Shown here in pieces: positions 46,984 through 64,000 of a DNA stretch of 64,000 nt (its first letter is position 1; every line of letters begins with the position of its first letter). This stretch comes from Clostridia bacterium (GTDB taxonomy: Bacteria > Bacillota > Clostridia > TANB77 > CAG-508), in NCBI GenBank assembly GCA_022792135.1, contig JAAWAM010000029.1, positions 117,448-181,447 on the forward strand, read 5' to 3'. The notes beneath the pieces are model-generated. The model made no database searches and was not told where the DNA came from. It worked only from the letters and a program-made list of their open reading frames with translations. Made by a program: the position numbers and the translations under genes.

Positions 46984-49900
46984 ATGAAGAAATATATCAT
47001 AGTAATTGTATTAATTGGATTAATATTAGGCTCTATCATTATGTATAATATTTTTCAGATACAAAGTGAAAAAACAAAATTTTTTAGTGAATCTGGATAT
47101 GTGTTACAGAGTCAATCAGAACAAAAAGTACAAAATGTAGAAAGGTACTATTTTAGTGCAAAAGAAAGCTATCAAAATAAATACAACCAAAAAGTTCTTT
47201 TTAAAGATACAAATGGAGATAAAATAGTCATTGATAAAAACAACTTTTTACATTATACGAATGGTTCTATGAGTGCCTTAACCAAAGGCGTTATTATGGA
47301 CTTGGCAAATATAGAATCAGATCCTATTTTGTATTATACCATACAAGAAAATATGATATTAAGAAAAAATGGAGATAAATATAGTGTTAAACATCTGAAT
47401 CAACAATTGGATTTTACAAATTTTATCTGGAAAATAGAAGATGAGAAATATTTAATTTGTGGTTCTCCTATTAACATTCATTTTCCAAATGGAGAAATCA
47501 AGGAAATCAATGGATACATAGAATTAGAATACGCAGATAATGAAGTGGTAAAAATTTATAACCAAGAGGTAACCTATCAAACAGTATCTTCGAATTTATA
47601 TCTTACTTTACCAGACGAAATTAAAATTAATATTTCCAATAAAATTGTAAGTAAGAATCATGAAAATAAAATGAGCTTAGAAAATATGATTATCAATTCA
47701 GATGATAATGTAGAAATTGTAGATATTGAAGAAGAAAAATACAAAGAAAAAACAGAAGAAAATGAAGTAGAAGAAAATAAAACAGAAGAAGAAAATCAAA
47801 CCAACAAGGCAAACAACACATCAAATGAAAATAATAGTGGAAACGGACAAGGAAATCATCAGCAAAATGAAGCAGGAATTGGAAATGTAAATGGAAATGG
47901 AAATGACCAAGAGGCAAATGGAACCATAGAGGGAACAAACAATGGGTCTGTTTTAGGAGGAAATGGTAATCAGACAGGAACAGGAGAAGAAGGAAATGAA
48001 ACCGTGGTAGAAGAAACACCACAAGTAATAGCACCTGTTTTTAAAGTAGAAGAATTAGAAGTAGATTCTATTAGCATGCAAGCTAAAATTACCATACAAG
48101 ATGACAATTCAACCTTAGTAGGAAATCCGCTGGTAAAGATATTAAAAAATGATACAGCAAAAACGGTATATGAAAAAGAAGAAAGTTCTGGTGTCTTTTC
48201 TTTGGATGTTAGTGTATCTTCTTTAGTACCAGATACAGAATATACCTTAGTAGTACAAGACACCTATCAAGTAGAAGAGGCCGAATATACTAAAAATTTT
48301 GTTTATAAAGTATTTCGAACAAAGTCAGCAGGAATTGATTTTGAAAAAGATTATTTTACCAATAACACCTTAGCCTTTCAAATTAAACTAGAAGAAGATT
48401 CCAAAGTAAAAGGTGCTGAAATGATAATAATGAATCAAAATGGAGAAATTGAACAAACCAGAAAGATTGATAGCACCCAAACCAAAAGTATAGAATTTAT
48501 AGGACTAAATTCAAATACGAATTATACGGTAGGAATTATCAATGTATTATATGATGGAGAAGTCATTACCAATGGATTTCAAATGCATAAAACATTCCAG
48601 ACCCTGAAAGAAAAACCAGAAATCAGTGGGACACAATTTGAGATTGATAAAAGAAATGGGCAATTTAAAATCGGATTACAAAATATGATAGATCCAGACA
48701 ATGGAATAAGAACGTGTCGTTATGAAATTTATGATACTAGAGTAGAAAATGAAGAGACAAAACCAGTTCTTACCATTGAGACCAATAAAAATGAACAAGT
48801 AACCATACCAGTGGATGGAAATAAAATTTTAAGAGGTGTACCTTATGTCTTCAAATTAGTGGCAACTTTTTATGATAATGAAAAAGAGATTGAATACGAG
48901 AGTGAATACAGTGATGTTATGAAAATGGATGGAGTAGAGTTTCCAACCGTAAGATTTGAAGAAAAAAATGTAACATTTGAAAGAATAGAAGGTTTACTAG
49001 TAATTGAGGATGATAGTAATACCATTGATTTGAGTAATAATCATGTATTCACAATTACATACACAGATTCGGTAGGAGTTACAGCTAGTTTTACCTCATC
49101 TGGAAGTCTAAAAATACCAGTATCCATTTATGGATTAAGAGCAAATGAGACCTATAAATTTTCAATCTATGGAACAGTAAACTTACAAGATGGAAATGAT
49201 GCAATTGAACAATGTTATATAGGAGGAGCCATTGTTAAAACAAAAATACCACAAAATCTAAAAGCTATGTTTGCAGAAGAAAGTGATGATGTAAAAAATA
49301 CATTTAATGTAGAGTTTCAATTACAAAATGATACAGATACAGTTGGAACTTTAGAAGCAGATACTTTATCTGGTATGACATTTCGTATTTATGCAGGACA
49401 AGCTGTAGAAGGAAGTCCCATCCGAACCAAAAGAGTAGTAGATAGCGATATAGCACCTTATATCAGTCTTTTAAAAGAAGAATATTACGATAAAAGTATA
49501 ACATTAACACCAGAATTTTTTGGAGCAACCAATCGAGATTTTAGAGATAAATACTATACGATTACAGTTGACAATGCGTATGATTATACACAATACCAAA
49601 ATAAAATTCCAATTGTATCCAATGTATATGTCGTGGAAACAAATGGATTTCGACCAGATTTACCAACTGACATAGAAAATGCATTAGACGTAGTAGAAAT
49701 TAGAAATAGAGATAAAGACCAAAGAGAAGAATTAGATGCTAGTATGGTAGTAGGATATCGTGTAACAGCCAAATATAACAACAGTGACTTATATGCAAGA
49801 AAAATTATTTATAAAGCTTATGACGCCAATACCAATGAATTAATCGAGACCAAAGAAGTAGACGTAGGAGAAAATGGTGTTATCCCACAAGTAGAATTTG

Positions 49901-63600: not shown

Positions 63601-64000
63601 ATGAATAGAAATCAAGCTTTCTTGTTAAAAGAACTACAAGTAGAAGTAGGTACAAAGAGGACAACTTATGAAGAATATCAATACAACGTAGAGGGGAAAC
63701 TAAGGGTCGATTTAACAGACCAAAGAAATGAAATCGTAGGAAAAGATTATTACATTCAAATTCTAGAAGATGGCATAACAAAAGGAACCAATCAATTTAT
63801 AGAAATAGACGAAAATGGAAAAGTAGAAGGAGCGATCAAACAATATCCTTTTGAGGAAAACAAGTCTTATGACATAAATTTATTAGTAAAGGTAAGAGAT
63901 CGTTTTTATGTGATAGCTACAACCAACTTTTCAACAGAGGGAGAGATTCGTGGAATTAGTACCATAGAAGAGTTTCAAACGATTCAGCCAAGTGGAAATT
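60700..64000 (+). CDS. second giant N-terminally anchored FN3/Ig-like repeat protein; partial, continuing past the window end
   Basis: ATG 60700 follows gaaagggag, and by hand translation the frame stays open to 64000. TM: FMVIAALSMILVIGFIGYTLLYF. There is an E/K/T/Q-rich linker, and motifs LEPNETYTILG, LDPNQYYKVSI and FNSNTTYYVEM. Confidence 0.7.
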   Translation, partial: MKPKTNEKKSLKELSKIPEFMVIAALSMILVIGFIGYTLLYFSPEEIIPYSGYAISGKDITENLLDENYEEIEKPKTVRVDEQEMVFKKLNRYYIGQKEKQEINLDYPIYINEKIALYNLSNRNTLLTEDFKEVDSYPRYILSDGVLYNEGELERADKNTYLFIKNEDNIVMNQFPIEIKTQYHKYEMGTNSIICFQEKMITYYTIDNDKLIYHKIEDIDFASNVTMKEKEYSYEELLIRLKLKEETVKTEKAEEEIIKEENIQESKTETKQETKPEESKPEESQTNQEENEVSGEHVYIKPEVTATDFEANVYSSNATIGIKDPNGEITSPVTFEFRKKGKIYLRKAVLSSGRLEILGLEPNETYTILGSYIYKNEEGKKIQKEFFSQEIHTKGVETLEPIHLRYENGEIFSNKIQIKNLKISSDLTAEALKGVKSVTLEANGISYKIPNSRINEMLKGQEVIQETQDNLSSNDKIQYEFKFYDIQGHELRVENSVGETRTAKAKPTVTVKVQKQEISQVDIALTLKNKDDAKLENYRYVVQNSKGDTIQEATIDSKQQVLELRNLDPNQYYKVSIFANYDIEDGKGMQENQVLGSCNFTSVPLSILGYLNLDTKIKELTKESAKIEASINQDRTDERLTYILHQISVSIYEQTKEDKKLIVMKTLEGEPIEKLKLAEKIEIELEGFNSNTTYYVEMNAVLKQGSTEEKINIMQPLEKFITKKEPAEILIRNQFVTGSMIDFDVKVKDIDEAILTKKVRMELRDERNKLVKMENIPVNEDYLRLTYEKLEERANYTICFYADEYNEGSDDSTYENNYLLKKLEIYTQPGISGDIGLSNLERKTTGKNLIDVRSDIKWHSTFYQSNAYYEKTYHQKTKELKLGVIGTQGQMYVYNLQEYVGQTVTVSFLAKRDKNSENTLIYLQNSKNGTNRSLVEGITQEEWKRYTYTITVDKTGYVGFYLVGKDTMNRNQAFLLKELQVEVGTKRTTYEEYQYNVEGKLRVDLTDQRNEIVGKDYYIQILEDGITKGTNQFIEIDENGKVEGAIKQYPFEENKSYDINLLVKVRDRFYVIATTNFSTEGEIRGISTIEEFQTIQPSGN

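Follow-up and report, generated by a model that had tools for sequence, protein, structure and literature searches.

What work is done by a set of F1Fo-like ATPase genes that lies among genes for giant surface proteins? The question is raised by a cluster of 11 genes in a 64,000-nucleotide (nt) stretch of DNA from Clostridia bacterium (assembly GCA_022792135.1, contig JAAWAM010000029.1, positions 117,448 to 181,447 of the forward strand), which we call the window. The cluster encodes c, b-delta, alpha, gamma, beta, and epsilon-like subunits, a polytopic membrane protein with about five transmembrane (TM) helices (the 5-TM protein), and four N-terminally anchored extracytoplasmic proteins (G1, A495, A229, and G2). 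We propose, at a probability of roughly one half, that its products form a derived F-type rotary ATPase that works solely as an ATP-hydrolysing motor and moves no ions, its torque being passed to, or resisted by, the surface proteins.

All 11 open reading frames (ORFs) are on the + strand, run from position 46984 to the end of the window, and are spaced between a 14-nt overlap and a 56-nt gap, which bears out the tight same-strand packing reported in a preliminary description of this DNA. The features of the cluster are as follows.

46984 to 52302, + strand: G1, 1772 amino acids (aa), ORF with a TM helix at residues 5-23
52323 to 53810, + strand: A495, 495 aa, TM helix at residues 18-36
53829 to 54074, + strand: c-like subunit, 81 aa, by Pfam ATP-synt_C
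54123 to 54956, + strand: putative b-delta fusion, 277 aa from the ATG at 54123, by AlphaFold2 (AF2) model and Foldseek
54993 to 56324, + strand: alpha-like subunit, 443 aa, by Pfam ATP-synt_ab
56332 to 57114, + strand: gamma-like subunit, 260 aa, by Pfam ATP-synt
57137 to 59182, + strand: beta-like subunit, 681 aa, by Pfam ATP-synt_ab and atpD TIGR01039
58695 to 58964, + strand: 39-bp tandem repeat in the beta tail, 6.9 copies with 94% matches, by Tandem Repeats Finder
59239 to 59454, + strand: epsilon-like subunit, 71 aa from the TTG at 59239, by a weak match to TIGR01216
59454 to 59987, + strand: polytopic membrane protein, 177 aa, about 5 TM helices, by ORF position and TM prediction
59974 to 60663, + strand: A229, 229 aa, TM helix at residues 6-24
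60700 to 64000, + strand: G2, 1100 aa as far as the window end, where it is cut, TM helix at residues 22-40

The genes for c, b, alpha, gamma, beta, and epsilon follow one another in the order of a canonical F1Fo operon (atpE-F-A-G-D-C), as first described, and all reading frames of the cluster are intact. The standard genetic code, likewise expected from the start, is in use: nine tryptophan codons are TGG, in-frame TGA does not occur in the cluster, and the stop codons are all TAA or TAG. A code-4 Mollicute origin was rejected on the same grounds. No terminator-like site was found on the + strand between 46 and 64 kb (shuffled sequences give an expectation of 5.7 for both strands together), and a promoter scan of this AT-rich DNA was uninformative (83 sites versus 94 expected). 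Peptidoglycan-related proteins encoded elsewhere in the window (a VanW/PG_binding_4/G5 protein and an M23 peptidase) agree with a walled cell.

Judged by sequence, the chemistry of the alpha3beta3 head is intact. Alpha and beta match Pfam ATP-synt_ab with 247 and 233 bits, respectively, and the catalytic signatures and DELSEED motif that had been read from the translations are present in alignments with Escherichia coli AtpA and AtpD. We compared the cluster with 84 related loci, each taken with 10 kb on either side (L001-L084), and with an E. coli reference locus (L085). Aligned with AtpA of the latter (35% identity), alpha keeps the P-loop GDKRTGKT, the arginine finger SVSRLGG, and the N-terminal helix, and is without a 14-aa insertion and about 60 residues of the C-terminal domain. 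Residues 1 to ~455 of beta, 41% identical to E. coli AtpD, amount to a full F1 beta, in which Walker A, the catalytic glutamate (GERSREG), and DELSEED are all found. Gamma matches Pfam ATP-synt with 91.9 bits against a gathering score of 39.9, and its homologues in 82 loci have a median identity of 47%.

Epsilon is recognized only weakly (Pfam ATP-synt_DE_N, E = 0.023; TIGR01216, E = 5e−4), so that the Pfam searches confirm the original naming of c, alpha, beta, and gamma and leave that of epsilon at the level of a weak match. The protein consists of the beta-sandwich N-terminal domain only, without the C-terminal inhibitory helices, and its homologues in 76 loci are 66 to 91 aa long. A conserved motif region was aligned with residues 24-46 of E. 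coli epsilon, an alignment that is not statistically significant. Residues conserved among the homologues are encoded upstream of the TTG at 59239, as far as about 59203, right after a stop codon (59183-59239). Translation of epsilon may begin near 59203-59212 at an ATT or ATC, neither of which is a canonical start codon, or the protein may be truncated at its N terminus in the window.

Beyond residue ~455, beta of the window continues to residue 681 as a tail rich in lysine and glutamate (encoded at 58502-59182), which holds the tandem repeat and is not found in relatives, whose betas have about 455 aa. In other lineages, it is alpha that carries a low-complexity tail, with acidic or proline-rich repeats (P0135-P0140; 620-1365 aa). 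The recurrence of such tails would suit an ATPase that sits on an inert c-ring and faces the cytoplasm, with its output delivered there, for example through the alpha or beta tails, and with the surface proteins serving only as stator anchors; the F1-like motor of Mycoplasma mobile is likewise organised by extra cytoplasmic domains (PMC11864180). We consider this quite improbable, because the tails show no conservation of sequence, position, or presence, with many members being tail-less, and because what is conserved in the module is located within the membrane and extracellularly.

The membrane half departs from the canonical enzyme. The c-like protein matches Pfam ATP-synt_C with 33.3 bits (gathering score, 24) and scores far under the cut-offs of all NCBIfam c equivalogs. 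It is a hairpin of two helices, in which the GxGxGxG motif for packing in helix 1 is retained, the cytoplasmic loop that contacts gamma and epsilon is an invariant GRNPETK, the C terminus is a conserved FxNP, and the helix is purely hydrophobic at mid-membrane. No other protein of the module is as well conserved (median identity of 72% in 80 loci). We aligned 66 distinct c homologues with the c subunits of E. coli and Ilyobacter tartaricus; the E. coli reference sequence matches that of L085. At the column of E. coli D61 and I. tartaricus E65, the window has alanine, and the homologues have alanine, threonine, serine, or asparagine, with no conserved acidic residue anywhere in helix 2. The absence of the carboxylate that had been noticed in the window is therefore borne out in 66 of 66 homologues, and the alignment speaks against a misplaced carboxylate.

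An a subunit was not found either, in keeping with the initial reading. Phmmer searches with E. coli AtpB, AtpI, AtpH, and AtpF returned zero matches among all ORFs of the window and the 84 loci, compared to 81 ORFs matched by E. coli AtpE in the same set. With no a subunit found and no carboxylate in c, the membrane half cannot work canonically.

The position after epsilon is taken, in most loci that reach past it, by an ORF of 165-200 aa with about five TM helices. This protein evolves fast: a 67-sequence alignment has few invariant positions and no conserved arginine or other charged residue within the helices. Hhalign and phmmer detected no similarity to E. coli a or AtpI, and the AF2 model is unusable (predicted local distance difference test [pLDDT] score of 45, with only 4 relatives retrieved). 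If the 5-TM protein were nonetheless a highly divergent a subunit, the enzyme could still translocate ions without a c carboxylate, and the giant proteins would be mere neighbours. Such an ion pump would be welcome in lineages that reportedly have no other rotary ATPase and must maintain a membrane potential (PMC11738941). It would also suit the score of beta, which exceeds the atpD equivalog cut-off, and the regular place of the polytopic protein after epsilon. We give this alternative little credence, given the lack of any conserved aspartate or glutamate in the c membrane helix, the lack of conserved charge and of similarity to a in the 5-TM protein, and the retention of synteny with the anchored proteins across genomes of 22-56% guanine-plus-cytosine (GC) content, which chance neighbourhood does not explain. 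To our knowledge, no carboxylate-free ion path has been described for the rotor rings of F-, V-, or A-type enzymes.

In contrast to the ion path, the peripheral stalk appears to be retained. The product of the "b-like" gene begins with a TM helix and a short coiled coil, which a variable disordered linker joins to a conserved C-terminal domain of about 170 aa, and its AF2 model (pLDDT of 79) shows a helix at residues 5-95, a helical bundle at 126-229, and beta strands at 234-274. When this model was compared with the PDB by Foldseek, nearly all of the ~40 best matches were delta/OSCP subunits, among them those of Acinetobacter, chloroplast, and Bacillus PS3, the bovine OSCP, and the b-delta fusion of mycobacteria; E. 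coli delta ranked first (E = 4.9e−3, probability of 0.98). Hhalign aligned the motif GIxIxYKNKxYDYS, at the C terminus, with the C-terminal motif of E. coli delta, Pfam OSCP matched 3 of 34 members weakly, and a profile search against the PDB gave no match. The delta assignment thus derives from the predicted fold, on which the protein is a b-delta fusion. The earlier statement that the cluster has no delta subunit is wrong on the same evidence, which places a delta/OSCP-like domain at the C terminus of the b-like protein. In canonical enzymes, delta is bound by the N-terminal helix of alpha. The likelier start of the fusion is the ATG at 54162, which has a good ribosome-binding site and gives a protein of 264 aa, the length also of the homologues.

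The four anchored proteins each have one N-terminal TM helix, and none of them has a C-terminal sorting signal. G1 is built of the anchor, a membrane-proximal domain of about 200 aa, a low-complexity linker, and divergent FN3-like domains. Its orthologues are found in 59 loci, and 24 of the 25 aligned sequences are 1716-1952 aa long, with invariant residues spread along their length. Pfam fn3 was detected in 17 of 25 G1 orthologues and not in the 1772-aa G1 of the window itself, and the G1 profile matches the FN3 pair of EphA2 (E = 8e−6). A495, present in 61 loci, is by hhalign comparison with the G1 profile (E = 3.8e−19, probability of 99%) a paralogue of the first ~530 aa of G1, with which it has in common the anchor, the membrane-proximal domain, the linker, and FN3-like domains; it has an FN3 match to tenascin (E = 1.8e−5). 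A229, present in 60 loci, has no PDB or Pfam match and carries a domain with a weak relationship to the membrane-proximal domain at the N terminus of G2 (hhalign, E = 2.7e−5) and to that of G1 (E = 1e−4). G2 orthologues follow A229 in 27 loci; they exceed 2,000 aa where the locus is long enough and reach up to ~3,000 aa (2990 residues as called in L004), and their FN3-like domain matches that of G1 (E = 1.2e−11). By these profile comparisons, the proteins are two paralogous pairs, G1/A495 upstream and A229/G2 downstream of the ATPase genes.

G1 and G2 had been described as giant anchored FN3-repeat proteins. Anchoring and FN3-like domains are upheld by the profiles; repeats are not, since G1 has no internal repeats at BLAST level and Pfam fn3 misses the G1 of the window. 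We rejected the possibility that G1 and G2 are variable repetitive adhesins because of the missing internal repeats, the uniform length of G1, and the spread of invariant residues along the protein. From its sequence conservation, G1 looks more like a machine part than a variable adhesin. In one species (L001-L004 and L086; 2083-7384), G1 was called as two ORFs of 446 and 1307-1328 aa, which together make ~1772 aa, and G2 is split in some assemblies (15011-21332) and single in L004. These split calls may reflect strain-level frameshifts or assembly errors.

The tight linkage of an ATPase to such large extracytoplasmic proteins could also mean that the F1-like head energises their secretion, insertion, folding, or assembly, by analogy with type III export by FliI/FliJ; FliI and SctN are homologues of F1 and were detected as distant matches. 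An export engine of this kind seems unlikely to us. The four partners have ordinary signal-anchor helices that suit insertion by Sec/YidC, and no export-gate homologue is present. The retained c-ring, gamma, epsilon, and b-delta stator point to rotation against a membrane ring and not to a hexameric unfoldase. The best scores with FliI/SctN models are 180-223 bits, against 412-481 bits with F1 models and below FliI/SctN cut-offs of 380-620, and alpha and beta are separate proteins in the cluster.

To evaluate how the cluster relates to known ATPases, we used the NCBIfam equivalog cut-offs (484.45 for atpA TIGR00962; 462.85 for atpD TIGR01039). Alpha of the window scores 412.4, under the first, and beta 481.4, just over the second. 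Alpha representatives of the family score 290-412 with the atpA model, all under its cut-off, and the next matches are true atpA proteins with 562-764 bits. Among 1.84 billion representative proteins searched with alpha, the family scores 495-617 bits (with one outlier at 373), compared to at most 324 bits and 42% identity for canonical atpA. Identity of alpha and beta is 55-98% within the family and at most 47% to canonical subunits, and a rough neighbour-joining distance tree places the family in one clade. Alpha and beta are, on these sequence comparisons, a distinct family, and the gap in atpA scores and the single clade support the separation from ordinary AtpA that had been suspected. 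The best PDB matches are ordinary bacterial F1 proteins (alpha, 327 bits; beta, 402 bits), with beta of the M. mobile G1-ATPase at 312 bits. For the remaining, non-catalytic parts of the cluster, no Pfam family apart from fn3 and no NCBIfam model fits.

With canonical F1Fo (atpIBEFHAGDC), the cluster shares the subunit set, the order of c, b, (delta), alpha, gamma, beta, and epsilon, the catalytic residues and DELSEED, the c hairpin with GxGxGxG and an R-x-P-E loop, and a peripheral stalk; the closest PDB structures are the F1 of Bacillus, Caldalkalibacillus, and Fusobacterium. It differs in the missing a subunit, a c without carboxylate, a delta fused to b, a short epsilon, an alpha of 443 aa, an identity of at most 47% to any canonical beta in plasmid-database records, and flanks that hold four anchored surface proteins in place of atpI and atpB. 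A fused b-delta stalk is also found in the mycobacterial F-ATP synthase. The mycobacterial enzyme makes ATP and includes, besides a separate b', an ordinary a subunit and a c-ring that bears the carboxylate. The N-ATPase (atpDCQRBEFAG) keeps a, an ion-binding c, AtpQ, and AtpR, whereas the cluster has no detectable a or c carboxylate; with the N-ATPase models, the window scores 363.5 against a cut-off of 750.5 (TIGR03324) and 423.6 against 752 (TIGR03305).

The closest functional precedents are from mycoplasmas. The Type 2 system of M. mobile (MMOB1610-1670) is an F1-derived alpha/beta/gamma/epsilon set whose ATP hydrolysis is believed to power giant surface proteins (PMC11864180; PMC12994834). 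Unlike the cluster, the Type 2 G1-ATPase has no c, b, or delta, and M. mobile also has a canonical Type 1 enzyme. The Type 3 F1-like X0 system (MSC_0618/0619), which is linked to MIB-MIP, likewise combines an F1-like head with a non-canonical membrane sector and a genetic linkage to surface proteins, which it presumably energises; its alpha is without the N-terminal helix and the system without b or delta, both of which the cluster keeps, and gene content and order differ. The window falls short of the cut-offs of the Type 2 models NF045863 and NF045858 (MMOB1660 and MMOB1670; 386.7 versus 600 and 381.5 versus 850) and of the Type 3 models NF045936 and NF045934 (314.4 versus 520 and 413.5 versus 570). 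Clusters of Types 2 and 3 comprise a 12-TM protein, a small cytoplasmic protein, gamma-like and epsilon-like proteins, a large signal-peptide protein with two TM helices, and alpha- and beta-like proteins (PMC12994834). That seven-gene content is not the one seen here, where c, b-delta, and the 5-TM protein are present and the order is canonical. As for MIB and MIP, neither family was detected: the Pfam scan of the accessory proteins gave a weak fn3 match only, and no search aimed at MIB or MIP sequences was made. The scores and the gene content together place the cluster outside mycoplasma Types 2 and 3, and no published description of it was found in the searchable literature; it had been presumed distinct and new on both counts.

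Comparison with plasmid databases yielded no record above 60% identity, and a plasmid origin was rejected. In the records of M. hyorhinis and M. cynos, alpha and beta of the window match the canonical Type 1 copy better than the extra copy. The PLSDB entries concerned, NZ_LR214949.1 (M. hyorhinis, 843 kb) and NZ_LR214986.1 (M. cynos, 987 kb), are whole chromosomes filed as plasmids.

The module is widespread. Alpha has thousands of metagenomic relatives at 57-98% identity, and a scan of one genome per species gave 80 loci, which puts the module in at least 80 species-level genomes. Carriers are labelled Clostridia (including "Candidatus Merdicola"), Bacilli, Tenericutes, Mollicutes, and Mycoplasmatota, and include Clostridium sp. 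CAG:302 and CAG:914 and an apparent isolate, Lachnospiraceae bacterium AM93-12TA (L044). The accessory genes adjoin the ATPase core in about 65 of the 80 species-level genomes, which shows that the linkage to giant proteins, first noted in a single genome, is conserved in relatives. By BLAST of the window's proteins against the ORFs of the loci, most loci have the order G1-A495-c-b/delta-alpha-gamma-beta-epsilon-TM-A229-G2 (type A). Type B loci have the order [G1-A495-A229]-c-b/delta-alpha-beta-epsilon-TM-gamma, where the bracketed genes are not always present. No conserved neighbours were found beyond the 11 genes, and no locus has a second alpha or beta homologue within 10 kb on either side.

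Some loci deviate further. In loci of the CAG:302 type without the giant genes, a protein of 244 aa with an N-terminal anchor is encoded in overlap with the start of c, and the core is followed by three paralogous signal-peptide proteins (L061; 15085-17405), the first of which weakly matches Peptidase_M73 (camelysin). A variant of the cluster with 56% GC in "Lachnospiraceae bacterium Zagget2" (L029; 1333-19007) has no BLAST-detectable c, a 141-aa ORF with a longer N-terminal region at the position of epsilon, and two collagen-repeat proteins after the cluster. It adjoins a large Proton_antipo_M ORF of the Mrp antiporter/NADH:quinone-oxidoreductase type, which is preceded by three ORFs of ~495 aa.

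Because the carriers mostly have small genomes (in one instance, a contig of 1.57 Mb), and the a subunit and carboxylate have been lost, the cluster might be regarded as a functionless remnant of an atp operon that is decaying in reduced genomes. The frames are intact, however, and the catalytic residues are kept, with identities of 57-98% in alpha and a median of 72% in c across at least 80 species and thousands of metagenomic copies. Intact frames and conservation on this scale indicate purifying selection, and we hold decay to be highly improbable, the least probable of the alternatives weighed here.

Is the cluster an extra copy, or the only rotary ATPase of its hosts? The preliminary description, by its analogy with mycoplasmas, had implied a recruited paralogue beside a canonical synthase. 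The ProAD survey lists o__TANB77, f__CAG-508, and f__UBA660 among the gut groups that appear to lack rotary ATPases, where a complete F-type enzyme was required to have all of alpha, beta, gamma, a, and c (PMC11738941). The closest named relative of the window is "Candidatus Merdicola" (L005), with an alpha 81% identical to that of the window, and Merdicola faecigallinarum belongs to CAG-508/TANB77 (PMC13106387). Taken together, the survey and this placement make the cluster probably the only rotary-ATPase-like system of the lineage. It is probably the sole set, descended from the ancestral atp operon, and the idea of an additional paralogue probably fails, as the survey finds no complete rotary ATPase in TANB77, CAG-508, or UBA660.

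How would a derived, ion-blind motor work? With intact catalytic sites and an epsilon without inhibitory helices, the head would hydrolyse ATP, and the retained stator (b-delta and the alpha N-terminal helix) would let gamma, epsilon, and the c-ring rotate against alpha3beta3 and b-delta. Because resistance to torque is the one purpose of a stator stalk, its retention leads us to expect that rotation still occurs. Without an a subunit and a carboxylate, the torque would be unable to move ions by any known mechanism, and could instead perform mechanical work at or across the membrane. The candidate partners are the co-encoded anchored proteins, by way of their TM segments and the domains next to the membrane. 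Of the two classes, one could ride on the rotor, at the c-ring and its conserved extracellular FxNP end; the other could be attached to the stator, at the b-delta TM helix and the 5-TM protein, and possibly be held against the wall. That c is so strongly conserved, up to and including the FxNP end, hints at partners outside the ring itself. ATP hydrolysis would in this way move or remodel the large FN3-containing surface proteins, with gliding, adhesion cycling, or other surface work as candidate outputs.

Several points weigh against this proposal. We infer all of expression, assembly, rotation, and contact with the surface proteins. The Foldseek E value behind the delta-like assignment is modest (4.9e−3), and the assignment is credible mainly because nearly all of the top matches are delta/OSCP. 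The 5-TM protein may be an a subunit that has diverged very far. For the lack of a canonical F- or V-type ATPase, we rely on a published survey, which dealt with orders and families and not with this particular genome. Finally, about 15 type B genomes, which form one clade of the CAG:302 type, have the seven-gene core only: no homologue of G1, A495, or A229 was found within 10 kb, and a small anchored protein still precedes c. The core may therefore function independently of the giants in this clade, or the giants may be encoded elsewhere in the genome.

A bolder version of the proposal is that TANB77/CAG-508-type gut Firmicutes and related reduced-genome Bacilli have turned their sole F-type ATPase into a rotary surface machine, with wall-spanning giants, an ion-blind c-ring, and movement or cyclic adhesion as its output. 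We advance it tentatively, as a possibility that is more doubtful than the motor itself. If true, it would be the third independent F1-derived motor, the first with a retained c-ring and stator, and the first among bacteria that have a wall. It might also mark a stage in evolution that is related to the mycoplasma machines of Types 2 and 3. The idea of a non-bioenergetic F1 head has so far come only from wall-less mycoplasmas, and the cluster would extend it to a module that is widespread in major uncultured clades of the human and animal gut. It also sharpens the puzzle posed by the ProAD survey: TANB77, CAG-508, and UBA660 would have a rotary ATPase after all, apparently an ion-blind one, which brings into question how membrane potential is kept up. 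A strongly conserved c-ring without ion sites, together with a stator, amounts to a natural experiment on the roles of rotor rings besides ion carriage. Surface structures are reported to link the abundance of TANB77 with the response to immunotherapy (PMC11680825), which would make conserved large surface machines of practical interest. The apparent cultured carrier AM93-12TA would make these questions directly testable.

Elsewhere in the window, an HtrA-like serine protease upstream of the cluster is encoded in two overlapping ORFs, an N-terminal Trypsin_2 part (44380-44955) and a part with the Trypsin C terminus plus PDZ (44927-45526); a frameshift, decay to a pseudogene, or an error in sequencing could account for the split. 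A single-module nonribosomal peptide synthetase with a terminal reductase (C-A-T-R, 1416 aa) is encoded on the minus strand at 38192-42442, with the gene for a histidine kinase on one side (36199-38190) and, on the other, that for a stand-alone AMP-binding enzyme (42879-44315). A TraG/TrwB-type coupling protein (minus strand, 16440-17840) lies near three tRNA genes (18771-19056), with a fourth tRNA gene at 22633-22706, and this region may be the edge of an integrated conjugative element. The VanW/PG_binding_4/G5 protein is encoded at 20643-22469, a tip-pilin-like protein with VWA and GBS104-like Ig domains at 24815-26263, a PspA/IM30 protein at 26693-27364, and a GIDE-domain protein at 27380-28165.

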